A stretch of DNA of 36,450 nucleotides from the IMG/VR virus record IMGVR_UViG_3300032225_000356, positions 1-36,450 of that record; one strand, given 5' to 3'. This DNA is from a virus (taxonomy: Duplodnaviria > Caudoviricetes). This document shows, piece after piece, positions 3,369 through 36,450 of this stretch (the first letter of the stretch is position 1; each line of letters opens with the position of its first letter). Both the position numbers and the translations under genes were made by a program. The notes beneath the pieces are model-generated. The model was not told the DNA's origin. It ran no database searches and was given only the letters and a program-made list of their open reading frames with translations.

Positions 3369-5411
3369 GTGGCAATTTGGAATCGTAAGCAAATTGATAA
3401 GGCGGCTCCCGTTTTACCTGCTGGTTCGCAAGTAACAAACTTTACCGCAGAAGAACTGCAAGGCATCGCAAGTCAGATGTACCAAATAGGTGTATTTGAA
3501 CCACTACCGCGTAATCCATTTCTTTCTGCTATTCCTTTTGGCCCATCCAATCCATTAAGCCCTAGCGCAATAAATCCAGTCAATGAAGATGGACACACAG
3601 AGCCGCGCCGATGGGAATACCCTGTTGCTTGGAACATCTTTGTTACCGAACAACGCCTAGTACCTTGGAAAGTTTTGCGCGTAGCCGCAGATCAAATAGA
3701 CATTATTCGCCGCTGTGTTGAAGTATCTAAATCAAAAATCTCTGGATTAAGTTGGGACATTTCGTTTAGCGAATCTGCATCCGAAATGGTTTCAGGCACA
3801 AGTGCTAAAGACCACGTTCAAGCCATGCAAGAAGCGCGCGACAAGTACAGCAAAGACATTGCTCGTATGCGCGAGTTCTGGACAACTCCAGATCGCATTA
3901 ACGGCCTTTCATTTAAAGACTGGTTAACAATGGTACTAGAAGAAGTTTTAGTTCTAGATGCTCTTGCCATTTACCCACATCCAGACATGAGTGGCGAACT
4001 ACACAGCCTTGAAATTCTAGACGGTTCAACCATTAAGCCATTGCTAGATGATCGCGGTATGCGTCCACAAAATCCATTTCCTGCTTACCAGCAAATGCTT
4101 TACGGATTCCCACGCGGAGAATTTATTGCATCTTCAGACGACCCAAATCAAGATGGCACATTCTCAAATGACGAACTTATTTATTCAATACGCAACCGCC
4201 GAACTTGGACACCATACGGTTACAGTCCAGTAGAACGATGCCTACCAATCGCAGACATTTACATTAAACGTCAACAATGGTTACGCGCAGAATTTACCGA
4301 TGGCGTTATGTCGGACATGATGCTTACTCCTGACAAAGATAGCAACTGGACTCCTGACTTGTTGCGCGCATACGAAAACATTATTAACGATGATCTTGCA
4401 GGACAGACAGAACAACGTCACCGCGCTCGCATCTTGCCACCAGGATTAACCCCGATTAACAACTACGGATTTAGCGAAAAGTTTAATCCAGCGTTTGACG
4501 AGTATTTGATTAAAGGTATTTGTGGACACTTCGGAGTTATGCCAACTGAAATTGGTTACACCGATGGCGGCGCACTAGGTGGAGCAGGACAACAAAACGG
4601 TGAAGCCGAATCTGCTACTTCCATTGGTATGACTCCACTTATCGGATGGCTAGAAGATTTAATTTCTGACATTAGTTATAAGTTCCTTGGTATGCCACGC
4701 GAACTTGTATTTAGTTTTGATGGTGGGCGCACAACTGAAACAACCGCTAACGCACAAAGGCGAGATATTGAAGTTAAAGGTGGACAGCGATCACTTAACG
4801 AAGCGCGCGCCGAAATGGGACTTCCGCTTATTGATTCACCTGAAGCCGATTCGCCTATTTTGGCCCTTGGCAAAGAACTGTATGTTGTAACTCCTGAAGG
4901 CATTGTTCCAGTTGGTGATGGTTCTACTCCTGCCGTACCTAACCTAACTGCACCAATTGAAGCACCAGTTGAAGAAGTTGATTCAACAGAAAAATCAGAA
5001 TCCATAAAAGTTGGACAGATGGTTTCTTGGAACTCAAGCGGTGGCAGAGCCGAAGGAAAAGTTACAAAGATTGTTAGGGACGGAAAGATAAACGTACCTA
5101 ATTCCAGTTTCACCATTACGGGAACAGAAGATGAACCAGCCGCTTTAATCAGGGTTTATAAAGACGGCAAGCCAACAGATACTTTAGTAGGCCACAAGTT
5201 AAACAGTTTAAATGTTGTGGGTTTTAAGTCAGATGAAGCAACTCAAGAAATTAAAGCATTTGTGAAGTGGGCTAAAAAGGGTAATTGTGATCGGGACTTT
5301 GAGTTCAAATCTATCGAGTCTTTTTATGCTGCAACTTTAAACCGCGCTGCTAAAGATGGTGACTTGTATTTAATTAAATCCATTTCAGAAGTTGCACTAA
5401 AAAAAGCATAA
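3369..5411 (+). CDS. Portal protein with C-terminal Tudor-like (DUF2945/Hva1-type) domain
   Basis: Follows terL; portal-like motifs YGYSPVE and SLNEARAEMGLP; VGQMVSWNSSGGRAEGKV domain at about 5001-5220. Confidence 0.92.
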   Translation: MAIWNRKQIDKAAPVLPAGSQVTNFTAEELQGIASQMYQIGVFEPLPRNPFLSAIPFGPSNPLSPSAINPVNEDGHTEPRRWEYPVAWNIFVTEQRLVPWKVLRVAADQIDIIRRCVEVSKSKISGLSWDISFSESASEMVSGTSAKDHVQAMQEARDKYSKDIARMREFWTTPDRINGLSFKDWLTMVLEEVLVLDALAIYPHPDMSGELHSLEILDGSTIKPLLDDRGMRPQNPFPAYQQMLYGFPRGEFIASSDDPNQDGTFSNDELIYSIRNRRTWTPYGYSPVERCLPIADIYIKRQQWLRAEFTDGVMSDMMLTPDKDSNWTPDLLRAYENIINDDLAGQTEQRHRARILPPGLTPINNYGFSEKFNPAFDEYLIKGICGHFGVMPTEIGYTDGGALGGAGQQNGEAESATSIGMTPLIGWLEDLISDISYKFLGMPRELVFSFDGGRTTETTANAQRRDIEVKGGQRSLNEARAEMGLPLIDSPEADSPILALGKELYVVTPEGIVPVGDGSTPAVPNLTAPIEAPVEEVDSTEKSESIKVGQMVSWNSSGGRAEGKVTKIVRDGKINVPNSSFTITGTEDEPAALIRVYKDGKPTDTLVGHKLNSLNVVGFKSDEATQEIKAFVKWAKKGNCDRDFEFKSIESFYAATLNRAAKDGDLYLIKSISEVALKKA

Positions 5412-5428
5412 GCCGTAGAGATGCGGCT
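5399..5428 (+). other. Candidate -1 frameshift signal (A AAA AAA plus GNRA-capped hairpin)
   Basis: Slippery heptamer 5399-5405, 5-nt spacer, AGCCGTA-GAGA-TGCGGCT hairpin 5411-5428; the -1 frame is the MuF frame. Confidence 0.6.
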
Positions 5429-5437
5429 AAAGCAAGG

Positions 5438-7009
5438 TTGATAGCACAAAACGCGATCATGGTTCAAGCGGCTATGCGCAAACAAGCGGATGCCGAAAAG
5501 ATAGCAAACAAATGGCTTGAGCATAATCTTGCAAAATCAATTACGCCAGAAGAAAGATCGTCTGCTCAATCATGGGCTGCAATAAATGTCCAGATAGATA
5601 ATTCAACATTAAACGAAGTCTTTTCTAAAATGTACGCTTCTGGTTATGCGTTCGGTATTGAAGATGCAAGAACAGAACTTTCTTCTTCCTACCAAATGGA
5701 TTGGGACTCTTGGAAAGCGGGAAACCCTGCTGCTGCATTGCTAGTTGACCCACCTAAAGGATTAGAAACTTTATTAAATCAAGCAAACGTAACCATTAAA
5801 GGCATAGACGAAAAAACACTAAATGACATTGGTTCTTCTTTGGCCTTGTCTTTATCAGATGGTTTAGGCGCAAGAGAAACCGCAAAAGCATTAGATAGAA
5901 TTCTAGATAATCCTGCTCGCTCTATGGTTATAGCGCGTACTGAAACTGCTCGCGCTTTAGTTCAATCAAACTTATCGGCATACAGAGATGCTGGAGTTAC
6001 AGAAATTGAATGGCTAGTAGGCGACCCAGAAGATGAAGATTGCCTTATGAACGATGGCGAAATAGTAACAATTGGCGATGCTTTTGCAAGTGGCGATACC
6101 GAACCACCAGTACATCCAAATTGCGTATGTGATGTAGCCCCAGTTATTTCAAATGAACCAGTTGATACTACTGATGAAAATGTAGACAACAATGACGAGA
6201 ATACAGACGTTACTGAAGTATCACCTGAAGGCGAAGATAATGTTATTCATGATGGTGTTGTAGATGAATCACCAATAACCACGCGCGAGCAGGAAATTGC
6301 TCGTACAGAGTTTATACCTGATAAATGGATTTCTTTAACATCTGAAGAAACTATCAATTATGAAGCATCACGTTTTTTAAACAATCCACGTTACGCAAAT
6401 TTGACTACAAGTGAATTAAAACAAATGGTTGTCGAAAGCGCGCCAATGAAACGATTTATTGAAAATGGTGAAATTCGCAAAAATGGCGATATTGTAGTTA
6501 AAGTCCATGATCTTAATGTTGCGGGTTTGACTAAAGAGATGATTGATAAATTACAAATTGCCGTACAAGACTTACAAACTAAATATCCTAAAGACCATTT
6601 AACAGTTCATGTTGGCGGTATGGCACATAAAAACGCTTATGGTGAAGCACATTTGGGCGATCATGACATACGTTTAAACCCAACTGAAACTATTGTTAAG
6701 GGTCAAGAACCTAACCTAGTTGAAGCGGGTAAATGGAAGATGCCTACCCTTGCTGAAGTTGATCGTTACCAATACACACTTGCCCATGAATGGGGTCATA
6801 CAATAGATTTAGCCAACCCGTGGCGCGCATCACGCGGACGTGAAATTGGTGTTTTAAAACGTAAGTATAAGGATGAATTTACAAGCGGTTATTCACAAAA
6901 AAACACAATGGAATTTTTTGCAGAAATGTTTGCTGAATGGCATTTATCAAAAGGTTCAACACCAAATTTATTAGTGCAAGCAATGGCAGAAAAATACGGG
7001 TGGAAGTAA
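5438..7009 (+). CDS. MuF (SPP1 gp7-like) head morphogenesis protein with C-terminal zincin metallopeptidase-like domain
   Basis: IARTETARA and PPVHPNCVC MuF motifs; acidic linker; HEWGH and EFFAE motifs. Confidence 0.9.
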   Translation: MIAQNAIMVQAAMRKQADAEKIANKWLEHNLAKSITPEERSSAQSWAAINVQIDNSTLNEVFSKMYASGYAFGIEDARTELSSSYQMDWDSWKAGNPAAALLVDPPKGLETLLNQANVTIKGIDEKTLNDIGSSLALSLSDGLGARETAKALDRILDNPARSMVIARTETARALVQSNLSAYRDAGVTEIEWLVGDPEDEDCLMNDGEIVTIGDAFASGDTEPPVHPNCVCDVAPVISNEPVDTTDENVDNNDENTDVTEVSPEGEDNVIHDGVVDESPITTREQEIARTEFIPDKWISLTSEETINYEASRFLNNPRYANLTTSELKQMVVESAPMKRFIENGEIRKNGDIVVKVHDLNVAGLTKEMIDKLQIAVQDLQTKYPKDHLTVHVGGMAHKNAYGEAHLGDHDIRLNPTETIVKGQEPNLVEAGKWKMPTLAEVDRYQYTLAHEWGHTIDLANPWRASRGREIGVLKRKYKDEFTSGYSQKNTMEFFAEMFAEWHLSKGSTPNLLVQAMAEKYGWK

Positions 7010-7509
7010 TGATTGATAACAACAAAGAAACTTGTGAACCGTCATACAATTTTAAACAAGAATTATTTAGCGATTTAATTAACTTAGCCGATTATTTTCC
7101 TGAAGCACAAAAAGAAATTGATCGGCGCATTGAAGAATTTAAACAACGCAAAACCACACCACAAGACAAAGCAATTAAATCTGATGGCTATGTTGCTACC
7201 GCAGGAATGAAAACTGCTGCACAGAGAGCAATAGATTGGCGCGAACAAGGCCATAAAGGTGGCACAGTAATTGGTGCAACTCGCGCACGACAAATTGTGT
7301 CAGGCGAAAAGATGTCAGACGAAACAGTTAAACGTATGTTTTCATTCTTTAGTCGTCACGAAGTAGATAAGAAAGCAACAGGTTTTAATTCAGGCGAAGA
7401 TGGATTTCCATCCGCAGGTAGGGTAGCATGGGATTTGTGGGGCGGTGACGCTGGCTTTAGTTGGTCGCGTCAAATTACCGAACGTCTTAAGCGAGAGGAA
7501 AAATCTTAA
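7009..7509 (+). CDS. Conserved-looking phage head-module protein of unknown function (true start probably ATG 7009)
   Basis: TAATG coupling at 7007-7011; motifs VKRMFSFFSRHE and GRVAWDLWGGDAG. Confidence 0.8.
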   Translation: MIDNNKETCEPSYNFKQELFSDLINLADYFPEAQKEIDRRIEEFKQRKTTPQDKAIKSDGYVATAGMKTAAQRAIDWREQGHKGGTVIGATRARQIVSGEKMSDETVKRMFSFFSRHEVDKKATGFNSGEDGFPSAGRVAWDLWGGDAGFSWSRQITERLKREEKS

Positions 7510-7787
7510 TGGCTTTAATACACACAAATTCGCAGGTGCAGACTACTGCAACCCTTATTGCTACAATTCCACAAACTATGCGATACACCGCTATTTCAAT
7601 TCAGAATGGTCATTCCTCTGCTATCTTTGTTGGCGATTCAACTATTACAACTTCTGGTGCAACCGCAGGTCACTCTATTGCCGCTGGTGGAACTTTCCAA
7701 CTATGGGTTAGTGCTGGCGATAAGGTTTATGCAATTTCGGCTGCCGCTACTGCTGCTGGTGCTGTTTCTGTTCTTTATTCTGCATAG
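7509..7787 (+). CDS. Small beta-rich putative virion protein
   Basis: TAATG-coupled; Ala/Thr/Ser-rich beta-strand pattern. Confidence 0.75.
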   Translation: MALIHTNSQVQTTATLIATIPQTMRYTAISIQNGHSSAIFVGDSTITTSGATAGHSIAAGGTFQLWVSAGDKVYAISAAATAAGAVSVLYSA

Positions 7788-7797
7788 GGGAAACTAA

Positions 7798-8121
7798 GTG
7801 GAACCTGGAATTTACAATTTTAATATTCCGCAAGGTGCAACCGTAAGCCAAGCCTTTACTATCGCAGGTTATGATCTAACAACTTGGACGGCAAAGTTAC
7901 AGGCTCGTACTTCATACGGTGCGCCAGATGCGTTTATTACTTTGACCAATGGCGCAGGTATTACGCTAGGCAACGGTACATTTCAAATTGATTTTACCTA
8001 CACTCAAACTAATTTATTCCCATTAGGCCAATGGGTTTATGATCTTGAAATTACTAACGGCGCAACTCGTTACCGTTTAATTCAAGGCAAGTTTAATGTC
8101 AGCCCACAGGTGACGATTTAA
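7798..8121 (+). CDS. Beta-sandwich adaptor-like protein preceding the fibre gene
   Basis: YNFNIPQGAT...YDLEIT...RLIQGKFNVSPQVT pattern seen in fibre-anchoring proteins. Confidence 0.7.
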   Translation: MEPGIYNFNIPQGATVSQAFTIAGYDLTTWTAKLQARTSYGAPDAFITLTNGAGITLGNGTFQIDFTYTQTNLFPLGQWVYDLEITNGATRYRLIQGKFNVSPQVTI

Positions 8122-10121
8122 TGGCTGGTGAAATTGCCACAACTGACACCATAGTTCAAGTCAATGTAACCGAAAGCGTTGTTGCATTAACTGTTGTTTC
8201 AAATCCAGTTGCGGTTACTGTTTCTGACGTTGGCATACAAGGTCCAACGGGTTTAACTGGTGCGACAGGTGCTACGGGCGCAACAGGCTCAAGCGGTGTA
8301 ATTGGCGTTACGGCTCCAATCACTAACTCTGGAACTTCAACTTCAGCACAACTAGGTTTAGATCAAACTGCTCTAAGTATCACGCCTAGTCAAGTTGCAG
8401 GTACAGCAGTAATCACAACTGACTCACGCCTAAGTGATACACGAACCCCAACCGATGCTTCGGTGACAGATGCAAAGATCGCAACAACTTTGAGTCCATC
8501 CAAAATTACTGGAACGGCTGCGGTCTTAGGCTCTGCCAACGCTTTTACAGTTGGCGGTCATACGATTACAAATGCAGTTGCTTCAATTATTCCGTTGCAG
8601 ATCAATGGTGCTGCTTCGCAAAGTGCAAACTTATTTGAAGTTAGAAACTCAACGCCAGCGATTATTGCAAGAATTACATCAAGTGGTGGAGTATTTTTAG
8701 ATGCACTTGGCGCATCAACAGTAAATGCTGGAAATGCTTTTGTTGTTGGTAGTGCTTATGGTGGCGTTAGATATAACAATGCAATGGTTTCCATACCTGC
8801 ATTGAGTCAAATTGGCACAATCATTCGGGCTAGTGCAAGTCAAACCCCAGACTTATTCCAATTTCAAAGTTCTACTTCTACAATTCTTGGCGGGCATAAT
8901 GCACTTGCCCAAATCTATTCAGGCTCAACTGCTCCACTTTACAAAGCGCAAGGTGGCGCAACTACCGCAACATTAGGTGATGGAACTACCGCAACAATTA
9001 CGACAACTTCAGCACATGGTTTTGCAGTTGGTGATCTTGTTGTCGTTGCAGGAATTACACCTGCTGGATACAACGGAACTTTTTCAATTACCGCAGTTGG
9101 CACAACTACAATTTCCTACCTAAACGCAACAACAGGAGCGCAAACTGTTGCGGGTACAGTTTCAGTTCCACCACAGGCAAGTATTACCCCAAGATCAGTC
9201 GGTACAGTTGGTTTAGTAGTTCGTGCTGCTGGTACACAAATTGCCAATTTACAAGAATGGCAAGATTCAACAGGTACAAGCATAACTAGAATTACTACAA
9301 CGGGTTCAATAAGTACAAACTCAATAACAGTTTCAGGCAGTTCTTCTTTTAACTTTCAAACAAACTTTCAAAATGCTGCTGTTACTCCACTTATTGCAAA
9401 GAATCTTGGTGGAGTTGCAGATGTATTTCAAATACAAAATGGTTCTGCGGTTGTAATTGCTGGCAATAACGTAGTTGGTCAGACTTTCACAGGCTCAACA
9501 ACAACAATTAACTCTGGCGTAGGTGGCGCAACAACGGCTGCATCTGGCGATGGCCTATTTGCAACTTTGACAATGACTACTGCAACTAACCTTGCAGTTG
9601 GTGATCGAATAGTTGTTGCTGGTGTAACTCCTACTGGTTACAACACAACAGGCGCACTTGTAACGGGAGTTAATAATGCTGGACCGTTCACAGTTTCGTA
9701 TCTTAACGGAACAACAGGAGCGCAAACTGTCGCTGGAACTGTTTCTACTCCAGCGCAAGCAAGTGTGACAGCGCGTAGTGCTGGAACTGTTGGGCAGATT
9801 ATTCGTGGTGCTGCTTCGCAATCTAGCGATTTACAACAATGGCAAACTTCTGGCGCAACAGTTTTGGCTAAAATTATTGCAGGGGGCAATATGTTTGCGA
9901 CAGATTTTAGAACTACAAATACTTACGGGTTATTAGGCGAAGCAAATTCTGGTGGGCGTTTATTTATGACTAGAGGAACAACAGCAGTCACCAATCCTGG
10001 AACGAACGCTGCAACACTTTATTTTCGCGATGGCACAACTGCTGGCACTCTCAAACTTGTCGTTCGCGCTGGAACTGCTGGCGCAGAAACGACAATTCTA
10101 GACAACATTCCACAAACCTAA
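8121..10121 (+). CDS. Fibre/adhesin-like structural protein with short collagen-like tract and internal duplication
   Basis: GPTGLTGATGATGATG tract; T/A/G/S-rich; two repeats at a 190-aa period. Confidence 0.8.
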   Translation: MAGEIATTDTIVQVNVTESVVALTVVSNPVAVTVSDVGIQGPTGLTGATGATGATGSSGVIGVTAPITNSGTSTSAQLGLDQTALSITPSQVAGTAVITTDSRLSDTRTPTDASVTDAKIATTLSPSKITGTAAVLGSANAFTVGGHTITNAVASIIPLQINGAASQSANLFEVRNSTPAIIARITSSGGVFLDALGASTVNAGNAFVVGSAYGGVRYNNAMVSIPALSQIGTIIRASASQTPDLFQFQSSTSTILGGHNALAQIYSGSTAPLYKAQGGATTATLGDGTTATITTTSAHGFAVGDLVVVAGITPAGYNGTFSITAVGTTTISYLNATTGAQTVAGTVSVPPQASITPRSVGTVGLVVRAAGTQIANLQEWQDSTGTSITRITTTGSISTNSITVSGSSSFNFQTNFQNAAVTPLIAKNLGGVADVFQIQNGSAVVIAGNNVVGQTFTGSTTTINSGVGGATTAASGDGLFATLTMTTATNLAVGDRIVVAGVTPTGYNTTGALVTGVNNAGPFTVSYLNGTTGAQTVAGTVSTPAQASVTARSAGTVGQIIRGAASQSSDLQQWQTSGATVLAKIIAGGNMFATDFRTTNTYGLLGEANSGGRLFMTRGTTAVTNPGTNAATLYFRDGTTAGTLKLVVRAGTAGAETTILDNIPQT

Positions 10122-10131
10122 GGGAAAACAA

Positions 10132-10356
10132 ATGGCTATTGATTTCAACACACTTCTAACAGATGAACACAAGCGCAACTTACTAACACAGCGAATTGAG
10201 CAATTTGCTGGCGAAGCATATCAGCATGAATTAAACCGCCAGATCGCTGAAAAGATCAACGACTCTGAATCGGTTGCCAGTTCAATGGCTGCATTAGTCA
10301 CGCTTGAAACTGCAATTACGGTTCACCAAGAAGAACTAGATTCTTTAACCGCATAG
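10132..10356 (+). CDS. Hypothetical helical protein (possible fibre chaperone)
   Basis: SD AAGGG; follows the fibre gene. Confidence 0.7.
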   Translation: MAIDFNTLLTDEHKRNLLTQRIEQFAGEAYQHELNRQIAEKINDSESVASSMAALVTLETAITVHQEELDSLTA

Positions 10357-17251: not shown

Positions 17252-17611
17252 ATGAGAGTAGAAGTTTATTCAGGCTGGATTCAATTAAGAGAGCCAGAAC
17301 TTGTCCCTGAAAGATTGCGGCGACCTGTATTTGAAAAAAGCGTTTCTGGTGTTTCTTTTGTAGATAACGAAGATGCAACCATTAACGAAGATACCATGAA
17401 ATTCTTTAGTGAATTTAATGATCTAGTTGCTATTGCAATGATTTCTGAATGGTCGTTTGAAGCACCATTAACTATTGATGGAATGTTAGATTTGCCTAGC
17501 AAGTCTTACGATGAAATCAGAACTGCGGTTAGTCCTTTTGTTACGAAACTAATTCCAAGTTTTGGAGTTGACCCTGACCCAAAAGCAACTACCGAGAACT
17601 CCGAAGAATAA
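17252..17611 (+). CDS. Tail assembly chaperone (gpG-like)
   Basis: Between tube and tape measure; contains slippery C CCA AAA at 17578-17584. Confidence 0.88.
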   Translation: MRVEVYSGWIQLREPELVPERLRRPVFEKSVSGVSFVDNEDATINEDTMKFFSEFNDLVAIAMISEWSFEAPLTIDGMLDLPSKSYDEIRTAVSPFVTKLIPSFGVDPDPKATTENSEE

Positions 17612-17796
17612 ATTGGCTTCTTAAAGGCGGTTCACCTGACGATAGATACCCCGCAAATCCATACTTGCGAGATTATTTTATTGTAAAAAACTTTGGTTGG
17701 ACTAAAGATCAAATAGATGAACAACCTGCTGTTTGGTTAGATTGGATGCTTTCAATTCATGGAATCGTACAAGAGATAGAAAATAACGCTCAATAA
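17584..17796 (+). CDS. Tail assembly chaperone -1 frameshift extension (gpGT-like), not in the ORF track
   Basis: -1 frame open for 70 codons (SNYRELRRINWLLKGG...FGWTKDQIDEQPAVWLDW...NAQ*); no convincing independent start. Confidence 0.85.
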   Translation, partial: SNYRELRRINWLLKGGSPDDRYPANPYLRDYFIVKNFGWTKDQIDEQPAVWLDWMLSIHGIVQEIENNAQ

Positions 17797-27430: not shown

Positions 27431-27772
27431 TTATTTCCTTCTTGTTAGATTTCTTGCGCGCTTCTTGCGCGCTGCTTTTGCTTCAGGAGTATCGGACATA
27501 AAGTATTCGCGTTCGTATTCCTGTGTGATACTCATGGCAGTTATGCCACGGGCTTTTCGTATTGCCTTGCGTTCATCTTCGTCTGTGCCAGCCCAGATAC
27601 CAAGTACTTTGACTCCAAGTGCATACTCTAAGCATTTGTTTGATACAGAACACGGTTCACAAATTTGTTGTGCCATTGGTTTAAAGAACGCTACATCTTC
27701 AAGACTGTTTGGGAAAAAAACATCTAGTCCTACACCAACACAGTTGCCATCAGATAAATCAGGTACGCTCAT
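27431..27772 (-). CDS. whiB: WhiB-family transcription factor
   Basis: C...FFP...CxxC...C, GIWAG and ERKAIR motifs; basic tail. Confidence 0.92.
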   Translation of the reverse strand: MSVPDLSDGNCVGVGLDVFFPNSLEDVAFFKPMAQQICEPCSVSNKCLEYALGVKVLGIWAGTDEDERKAIRKARGITAMSITQEYEREYFMSDTPEAKAARKKRARNLTRRK

Positions 27773-31408: not shown

Positions 31409-31699
31409 ATGACGGGACACTTATCGAAGTTATCTTCGCCCAATCTTCCCCTAGCGGCTTGCATTGGAATTGACCCCGAATTATTTTATGCCGAAGATTG
31501 CATAAACCCCGATCAAGAAAAGATAGATGAAGCGCGTCAAATTTGTTTAGGATGCGTTGAACGTATTGTTTGCTTATCTTGGGGAATGTATAACGAAACT
31601 TTTGGTATGTGGGGAGCAATGACCAGCAACGAACGGCGCGATTACAAACAAAGAAAAATGCACAAATTAAAACACTTGAGAGAACTAGGAATTATTTAA
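31409..31699 (+). CDS. whiB: WhiB-family transcription factor (second copy)
   Basis: AAC.G.DPELFY, CxxC...C and GMWGAMTSNER motifs. Confidence 0.92.
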   Translation: MTGHLSKLSSPNLPLAACIGIDPELFYAEDCINPDQEKIDEARQICLGCVERIVCLSWGMYNETFGMWGAMTSNERRDYKQRKMHKLKHLRELGII

Positions 31700-34869: not shown

Positions 34870-35078
34870 CAACATCTAGATTTGATTCAGTAAACAAAAT
34901 TGTAGAAAATACCTATACAGCAACTATCATTGTTAAAAGTTTGTCAGAAGCAATTGCGCAAGAGATTGAAATCTATGCAGAACTGCTTAAGCAAAATGGT
35001 GACATTTACAACCAAGGCGCAGGATTAATTAAAGCCGCGCAACTGGTACGCGAAAATTCGACAGAGAGAGAACTTTAA
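34863..35078 (+). CDS. Hypothetical protein
   Basis: SD GAGG; IAQEIE...AAQLVR motif. Confidence 0.65.
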   Translation: MVATSRFDSVNKIVENTYTATIIVKSLSEAIAQEIEIYAELLKQNGDIYNQGAGLIKAAQLVRENSTEREL

Positions 35079-35350
35079 TGTTTAACCGAAATAGCAATTC
35101 AATGTCTGAAGAAATTACAACCGAACCAATCGTAGACGGTTCATTTGTTGAAACTGCATTTGGGCGCGAAGATTTTAATCCAAGTGATGAAGAAGATCGT
35201 GCCAAGCGCAAATACAACGACACATCTAGTAGCAAAGCAAACGGATTAGACCCAAAGGCTGTACGTCAATGGGCAGAGTCACAAGGAATTGCTTTGCCTA
35301 ATCGTGGACGCTTTCCAGCAGTTGTAGTTCGGCTATATTTAAATAAATAA
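35078..35350 (+). CDS. Lsr2-like C-terminal DNA-binding domain protein
   Basis: AVRQWAESQGI.LPNRGRFP..V..Y matches the Lsr2 AT-hook domain. Confidence 0.85.
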   Translation: MFNRNSNSMSEEITTEPIVDGSFVETAFGREDFNPSDEEDRAKRKYNDTSSSKANGLDPKAVRQWAESQGIALPNRGRFPAVVVRLYLNK

Positions 35351-35506: not shown

Positions 35507-36450
35507 ATGAATTATGATTTGCGCAACGGTGACTGTATTGACATTATGCGAACCTTGCCAGATAACAGCGTTGATTCAATAGTTACAGACCCACCTTATG
35601 AACTCGGCTTCATGGGTAAGTCGTGGGATTCAACTGGCATTGCGTACAGCGTAAAAATGTGGGATGAAGTTTTAAGGGTTTTGAAGCCAGGTGGACACCT
35701 ACTTGCCTTTAGCGGCTCTCGCACCTATCACCGCATGGTTGTCGCTATCGAAGATGCAGGGTTTGAAATTCGTGATCAGATCATGTGGGTCTATGGTTCA
35801 GGGTTTCCAAAATCGCTAGACGTAAGCAAAGCGATAGACAAACAAGCACGCGTTGAGCGCGAAGTCGTTAGTTCATTTCAAAGGTCGGGGCGAAGTGGCG
35901 GAATTCTTGGCAAAGAATCCGAGATAACAAGAAACATAACCGCGCCAGCAACAGACAAAGCAATTCAATGGCAAGGCTGGGGAACAGCACTAAAGCCAGC
36001 GCATGAGCCGATTGTTGTTGCCCGTAAGCCGTTGGCAGAAAAGACCGTTGCCGCGAATGTGTTGGCATACGGAACAGGCGCGTTGAACATTGACAGGTCA
36101 CGGGTTACAACTGATGACAATTTAGGACGCGAGGTTTATCAAACTCAAAGTTGGAAAAATACAAGTACCGCTGGTGTGGGCAGCGTTAATGATGATTGGA
36201 AAATGGGTCGCTGGCCAGCCAATGTCATTCACGATGGCTCGGATGAAGTTGTGGAGTTATTTCCTAACACCAATGGTCGTGTAGGAAATACGCAGTATGG
36301 AAGTGGCACAAATACTATTTACGGAACATTTAGCACAGAATCAAATCCAAATGGTTCAAACGGTGTTTCTGACTCAGGCTCCGCCGCTCGTTTCTTCTAT
36401 TGCGCCAAAGCCAGCAAGCGTGATCGCAATGAGGGGTTGGATGGGTTTGA
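35507..36450 (+). CDS. DNA methyltransferase (beta class), 5' part; full gene about 422 aa, ending at 448
   Basis: MNYDLRNGDC...VTDPPY (motif IV), LKPGG, GSGFPKS and RWPAN; open to the window end; missing from the ORF track. Confidence 0.93.
   Translation, partial: MNYDLRNGDCIDIMRTLPDNSVDSIVTDPPYELGFMGKSWDSTGIAYSVKMWDEVLRVLKPGGHLLAFSGSRTYHRMVVAIEDAGFEIRDQIMWVYGSGFPKSLDVSKAIDKQARVEREVVSSFQRSGRSGGILGKESEITRNITAPATDKAIQWQGWGTALKPAHEPIVVARKPLAEKTVAANVLAYGTGALNIDRSRVTTDDNLGREVYQTQSWKNTSTAGVGSVNDDWKMGRWPANVIHDGSDEVVELFPNTNGRVGNTQYGSGTNTIYGTFSTESNPNGSNGVSDSGSAARFFYCAKASKRDRNEGLDGF
36328..36450. repeat. Terminal direct repeat, copy 2
   Basis: Identical to 1-123. Confidence 0.95.

Follow-up and report, generated by a model that had tools for sequence, protein, structure and literature searches.

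A candidate programmed -1 frameshift joining the portal and MuF genes of a tailed phage

The DNA analysed here, referred to as the window, is a tailed-phage genome of 36,450 bases (IMG/VR record IMGVR_UViG_3300032225_000356), a complete virus record with direct terminal repeats. Profile searches revealed terminase, portal, MuF, protease-like, capsid-like and tail genes in the window, and the junction between the portal and MuF genes is the subject of this study (Table 1). The two genes do not form one reading frame. The portal ends with CTA AAA AAA GCA TAA, the stop codon occupying 5409-5411, and MuF lies in the -1 frame, which is free of stops from 5378 to 7009 and contains the PF04233 domain. 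A single PHROG profile, phrog_2662, spans both genes in order. The A7 run at 5399-5405 forms a slippery heptamer, A_AAA_AAA, in the portal phase, and the hairpin that follows at 5411-5428 has a folding energy of -9.8 kcal/mol (z -4.4), with none of 200 shuffles as good. An initial annotation of this DNA had proposed that a -1 frameshift fuses the portal to MuF; its positions for the heptamer, the hairpin and the open -1 frame all hold, and the fusion, put there at roughly 1213 aa, has a computed length of 1213 aa. The heptamer site sits between portal and MuF, not between the major tail and tape measure genes. A7 runs are common (14 in the window). In-phase heptamers have a background of 15 among 12,928 portal codons, which corresponds to a chance of about 1.7% for each junction. 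The A7 run is the same in the single contig that spans the junction, which may be the source of the window and is thus not independent.

Table 1. Features of the portal/MuF junction and further features of the window
Feature	Position	Strand	Basis or remark
Portal gene, 680 aa, zero-frame product	3369..5411	+	PF04860 E 2.6e-12; phrog_2662 positions 23-416
Hva1_TUDOR-like insert in portal, optional in clade	5013..5171	+	PF11160 E 2.6e-07
Slippery heptamer A_AAA_AAA, portal phase	5399..5405	+	Sequence; X_XXA_AAA-type site in 25/25 clade junctions
Portal stop codon, in spacer between heptamer and stem	5409..5411	+	Sequence
3' hairpin	5411..5428	+	Conserved core 5412-5416 paired with 5423-5427, 6 nt past heptamer
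-1 frame from predicted shift point, 534 codons: MuF N-terminal segment, MuF domain, C-terminal tail	5405..7009	+	phrog_2662 positions 518-710
Phage_Mu_F domain	5825..6136	+	PF04233 E 2.8e-09
Zincin-like tail (predicted), variable cargo	6275..7006	+	HExxH motif at 6785-6799
C_CCA_AAA site at presumed tail-assembly-chaperone pair	17578..17584	+	Position between tail tube and tape-measure-like genes
WhiB genes (two) and Lsr2 domain (one)	27431-27772 (-), 31409-31699, 35078-35350		Profile matches

Searches of viral, metagenome and genome contigs gave 426 related loci, which were analysed together with the window. By profile typing, 289 of the loci were split portal/MuF junctions and 75 were in-frame fusions, and a further 36 truncated loci, 16 without a portal and 11 without MuF were put to one side. 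Once identical junctions had been collapsed, there remained 202 split and 31 fused junctions, plus 5 that lack MuF. MuF was scored as having its own start when an ATG, GTG or TTG lay within 12 nt of the portal stop, a threshold that we chose. By this definition, 151 of the 202 distinct split junctions have a start only, 32 a heptamer only, 19 both and none neither, and the heptamer is present in 51. The -1 phase alone was rejected as evidence of frameshifting, as 124 of the 151 own-start junctions are also in the -1 phase, via ATGA or TAATG overlaps. Seventeen of the 19 junctions with both belong to a high-GC clade, where the start-type codon is mostly GTG and lies 33-63 nt inside conserved MuF sequence. 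The members of this clade (L043 and L322-L338) carry C_CCA_AAA or G_GGA_AAA 40-58 nt upstream of the portal stop. A distant portal group of seven junctions (L300, L302, L306, L307, L312, L313 and L315) has A runs of about 9-10, located 34-55 nt before the stop, with MuF in the -1 frame and the hairpin absent; these are candidates for transcriptional slippage. In one further relative (L001), an in-frame TGA at position 1493 interrupts the portal at codon 63, the rest of which is intact; this TGA may be an error or a variant.

All 25 distinct junctions of the window's own clade carry an in-phase X_XXA_AAA site (A_AAA_AAA, G_GGA_AAA, C_CCA_AAA and one A9 run), and the random phase that the initial annotation had considered for relatives did not occur. 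The first three bases of the heptamer vary jointly, altering the encoded residue (Lys, Gly or Pro); such a joint change would not be required by protein selection. Among the 18 of 25 members without early gaps, 55-66% of single-base codon differences are synonymous in the -1 frame, compared with 19-27% in the zero frame. The corresponding values in the high-GC clade (14 of 17 junctions), taken within the portal overlap upstream of any start, are 70% and 21%. From the heptamer onward, the -1 frame contains no stops, and these patterns indicate coding selection on it. A portal tree of 73 rows (quick IQ-TREE search, LG+G4, midpoint root, with the direction of change not established) placed the heptamer in 11 of 11 representatives around the window (support 100), with a sister group of 22 own-start rows. 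Heptamer-bearing junctions also occur at several places on this tree. Because the label needs 5 changes, the tree indicates that the heptamer state was gained or lost several times.

The hairpin was aligned in 17 of the 25 clade junctions, which were selected by eye because their stems are of one type, and is different or weak in the others. Its five core pairs hold in 85 of 85 cells, two-sided changes number 8, and core covariation is 0.292, a value reached in none of 500 shuffles, with slid controls at 0.145 or below. The tool used warns that related sequences may beat shuffles without any structure, so the main weight lies with the two-sided changes. Conservation of the slippery site and the hairpin at related junctions, put forward in the initial annotation as a check, was borne out in that both are kept, with compensating changes. 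The 7-bp stem with a GNRA loop described there survives in part: it is present in the window and its 5-bp core is conserved, but the outer two base pairs are not, and the GNRA loop was rejected as part of the signal, since its sequence differs between junctions and 10 of the 17 leave the inner pair unpaired. One relative, L246, has lost the stop at this place and retains the heptamer and hairpin at the same spacing; the stem is therefore tied to the heptamer, not to the stop. A search of the viral collection for a DNA pattern of A-run, stop and stem gave 11 stretches, all of them portal/MuF junctions of the window's clade, a result that shows specificity only, as the pattern was built from such junctions. 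On the 5' side, a Shine-Dalgarno (SD)-like element averages -6.45 kcal/mol in the clade against a background of -3.07, and is strong in the high-GC clade (mean -9.3 versus -4.6).

According to the initial annotation, MuF has no good start of its own. TTG 5438 and ATG 5459 do show weak anti-SD pairing (-2.7 and -2.1 kcal/mol, respectively), and no start is conserved across the window's clade. Weak pairing is not decisive alone, as starts in the sister clade average just -3.2. Among the 25 clade junctions, the first possible start after the heptamer falls at codons 2 to 81 with no fixed place, and several members are without any ATG, GTG or TTG for 54-81 codons. Of 20 gap-free members, 2 have a start codon at the position of the window's TTG, and the codon overlapping the portal stop (n=25) is GTA in 10 junctions, ATA in 6, CTA in 4, TTA in 2, GTG in 2 and CTG in 1. 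MuF read from the heptamer aligns to Met1 of MuF in the own-start sister clade. The gene is called at 516 aa in the protein database, which is the length from ATG 5459.

In-frame portal-MuF fusions, which the initial annotation had taken to exist, were found in 31 distinct forms among the relatives, and the annotation of Arthrobacter phage Sonali describes a fusion of a portal with a MuF-like protein in a single open reading frame (ORF). Ten loci from bacterial genomes, mostly Streptomyces, Amycolatopsis and kin, are fused. Eleven records of cultured phages match the portal, nine of these within the core. No frameshift annotation was found in the four cultured-phage records examined; Sonali and Mufasa8 are single ORFs. 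When split junctions were mapped onto fused relatives, the seam was clean solely for one sister pair, in which the zero-frame and -1 pieces of L016 correspond to residues 553-611 and 612-681 of the in-frame fused L015. These two differ by one base directly 3' of the heptamer, and their cargo is not MuF. The pairs L323/L144, L148/L409 and L038/L040 were roughly collinear with gaps, and the mapping gave no information for L043/L147, L307/L310 or the window itself. In L016 (region 4496-4890), the heptamer joins the portal to a 129-codon non-MuF ORF that is fused in frame in L015 and that looks ParB-like by eye. MuF in this portal family has three forms, namely with its own start codon, as a frameshift extension and as an in-frame fusion.

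The heptamer, the hairpin, the missing conserved start and the coding pattern across relatives support the -1 frameshift reading of the initial annotation, and we consider it highly probable, from the sequence comparisons, that the frameshift is programmed and that some ribosomes slip, so that a portal-MuF protein of 1213 aa is made in addition to the ordinary 680-aa portal. A fraction of ribosomes would move back one base at the conserved heptamer, with the hairpin 6 nt downstream. The tRNAs would slip on the two Lys codons with the help of the hairpin and, in many relatives but not in the window genome, of the SD-like 5' element. Mixed portal rings would result. The portal C-terminus faces the capsid interior in SPP1/HK97-type portals, and some subunits would therefore bring MuF and its variable tail into the head. 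Presumably a minority of subunits would be extended, which would set the stoichiometry.

Several observations weigh against this interpretation. Junctions inside one clade are non-independent observations, and the aligned hairpins were a selection made by eye. The stem is small, z is below -2 in only 12 of 25 clade junctions (8 of 60 sampled controls), and no junction of the high-GC clade shows the hairpin (0/17). A_AAA_AAA shifts far less than A_AAA_AAG in Escherichia coli, according to PMC5009743. The window is without the 5' SD-like element (-1.0 kcal/mol), and its shift efficiency may therefore be low. Two relatives, L152 and L231, have a true GTGA overlap besides the heptamer. Finally, ATG 5474 shows moderate anti-SD pairing (-5.0) and its codon is ATG in 9 of 20 members, and some separate translation of a shortened MuF from this weak start is possible.

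The last point bears on the strongest alternative, that MuF is made separately, either because ribosomes reinitiate once past the portal stop or because they use a weak start within the sequence (TTG 5438, ATG 5459, ATG 5474 or the ATA overlapping the stop), with the A-run just encoding terminal lysines. This is how the sister clade makes MuF (151 junctions with a start at the stop), with SD elements that are weak there too (mean -3.2), and both the recurrence of ATG 5474 and the database call from ATG 5459 fit such a scheme. However, the codon overlapping the stop is mostly not of start type (GTG in 2/25), several members have no start over the long stretches given above, and later starts would delete the N-terminal segment kept by the sister clade. 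Separate synthesis also leaves unexplained the residue-changing heptamer variants (Lys, Gly, Pro) that keep the XXX pattern, as well as L246, and we regard it as improbable.

A real fusion might alternatively come from slippage during transcription, with an extra A inserted in the A-run, for which we see slightly less room still. The A7 of the window, the A9 of L014 and the runs of about 9-10 A without a hairpin in the distant L300-L315 group would suit it, but PMC5009743 reports that polymerases slip efficiently on runs of 9, the G_GGA_AAA and C_CCA_AAA variants of the same clade have just four A's, and the hairpin at fixed spacing and the codon phase point to the ribosome. It is very unlikely that the hairpin and A-run are an intrinsic terminator of antisense transcripts unrelated to recoding: a consensus scan flags 5428-5411 as terminator-like on the minus strand, but the scan yields 1 site against 1.1 expected by chance, the T-run begins 5-6 nt from the stem and has only four T's in the GGG and CCC variants, and the missing start, the codon phase and the -1 coding pattern would stay unexplained. 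An assembly error, by which a plain in-frame fusion lost one A, is the least credible explanation; the run is a homopolymer, in-frame fusions exist in the family and the data are assembled contigs, not raw reads, but 24 other distinct junctions on other contigs are in the same phase, some without a long A-run.

The frameshift product had been described in the initial annotation as a portal-Tudor-MuF-zincin fusion. Portal and MuF are its constant part, and the other two are optional: a crude motif test on portals that are partly truncated detected the Tudor insert in 7 of the 25 clade members, and the HExxH tail is present in 5 of 25, the remaining tails being absent or unrelated. Because the insert and the tail vary while portal-MuF is constant, the recoding signal appears to serve portal-MuF with interchangeable cargo and not the enzyme in particular. 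The HExxH motif is invariant across 18 aligned sequences. A search of the MuF tail against PF07737 gave a match below the cut-off, and its sequence had 0 matches in the PDB. The structure model of the tail is modest (pLDDT 62); its best Foldseek matches are zinc metallopeptidases at E 0.007 or weaker, with nothing at E 0.001 or better. The tail is likely a zincin, as predicted from the motif and these weak fold matches. MuF tails among close relatives range from 7 to 721 aa, and L002, L004, L005, L007, L014, L152 and L246 have long unrelated C-terminal tails. Judged by eye, some of these tails may be ADP-ribosyltransferase domains. Further matches of the Tudor-like insert lie in a hypothetical protein of Limnohabitans phage DC31 and, in Roseobacter phage CRP-811, in a region that carries the annotation major capsid protein.

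A scan of 75 window ORFs for an in-phase heptamer near the stop and a long -1 frame gave four sites. The portal site and the presumed tail-chaperone site account for two of these, and the remaining two have ordinary overlapping starts. The chaperone pair spans 17252-17796, with a -1 frame of 72 codons and no strong hairpin (-4.8 kcal/mol), and the same C_CCA_AAA heptamer was found at 7 of 7 related chaperone loci. Ser directly follows the heptamer in 24/25, 16/17 and 3/3 junctions. With HK97-type prohead cleavage as the lead, the Lys-Ser seam was considered as a prohead-protease site, and this candidate was rejected, since the chaperone site shares the context (7/7) and motif counts in head versus other proteins are not discriminating; it is at best a weak idea.

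As for the rest of the genome, a DNA methylase gene is split over the record ends (35507-36448 and 2-448), which fits a circularly permuted complete genome. The presence of two WhiB genes and one Lsr2 domain points to an Actinomycetota host. The ORF after MuF (7009-7509) likely begins at ATG 7009, in a TAATG overlap, and not at 6937; its phrog_2859-like domain appears, by eye, to be fused in frame to MuF in L001 and L002. Between MuF and the protease-like gene (7509-10356) lie four genes without Pfam matches, one of which encodes a 666-aa Thr/Gly/Ala-rich protein.

Frameshifts in chaperone, capsid and tail genes, in-frame portal-MuF fusions and MuF toxins are described in the parts consulted of PMC7302621, PMC7911831, PMC6316719, PMC5576092, PMC5009743, PMC10885494, bioRxiv 2025.10.02.679949, PMC5512222, PMC2628397, PMC10299305 and PMC3556154. 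A literature search that covered passages of main texts, with few subscription journals among them, found no description of a frameshift in a portal gene, and the word portal is absent from the main text of PMC10885494, from bioRxiv 2025.10.02.679949 as consulted and from the first 300,000 of 449,034 characters of PMC5009743. The junction is real and very likely programmed, a known recoding mechanism at a gene where none was found described. With more reserve, we favour the broader proposal that portal genes are a further, unrecognised conserved -1 frameshift site in tailed phages. The frameshift would then be a tunable middle state between fused and separate MuF, arisen or lost repeatedly, by which interchangeable cargo (MuF bearing a zincin or another tail, or the non-MuF domain of L016) is attached covalently to a fixed share of the portal subunits for packaging at the DNA exit.

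If this is true, the portal becomes a further recoded phage gene beside the tail chaperone, capsid and tail tube, and many MuF genes carry false annotated starts and truncated N-termini, as in the 516-aa call here. It suggests a simple route to a few MuF or effector copies per head, and the relation of MuF copy number to infectivity becomes testable by tuning one heptamer. The family offers a natural comparison set of fused, frameshifted and separately started forms, including the pair that differs by a single seam base.

Among known systems, the E. coli dnaX and insertion sequence (IS)-element -1 signals resemble the present one in the Lys-codon heptamer and in the 5' SD-like element found in many relatives (PMC5009743, in part). 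They differ in that the site here is X_XXA_AAA and not A_AAA_AAG, which would fit a host with two lysine tRNAs, and in that the window has no SD-like element. Tail assembly chaperones (lambda gpG/gpGT; SPP1 17.5/17.5*) share an X_XXY_YYZ site located late in a morphogenesis gene and a short and an extended product (PMC5009743 and PMC6316719), and the presumed chaperone site of this phage is also of the X_XXA_AAA-G type. Here, however, it is the portal that would be extended, with MuF as the extension; the two are virion head components and not transient chaperones. The capsid and tail frameshift extensions of T7, T3, Lactobacillus A2, Listeria A118/A500/PSA and SPP1 gp17.1* likewise give a fraction of the protein a C-terminal extension, and an in-frame form also occurs (PMC5009743, in part). 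Those systems add mostly Ig-like domains to major subunits, whereas the portal would here gain an entire minor head protein together with its variable cargo. MuF polymorphic toxins have the MuF domain (PF04233) next to the portal and a C-terminal domain that varies among close relatives; in them, as in SPP1 gp6/gp7, MuF is a separate protein with non-covalent targeting, unlike the covalent join proposed here, and the word frameshift is absent from the main text of the paper on these systems. The same domain order is found in the single-ORF portal-MuF fusions of Microbacterium subclusters EA3, EA5 and EA8 and cluster EB (PMC7302621), and in that of Arthrobacter phage Sonali. In those fusions every portal subunit carries MuF, whereas the join described here is out of frame and would be partial.

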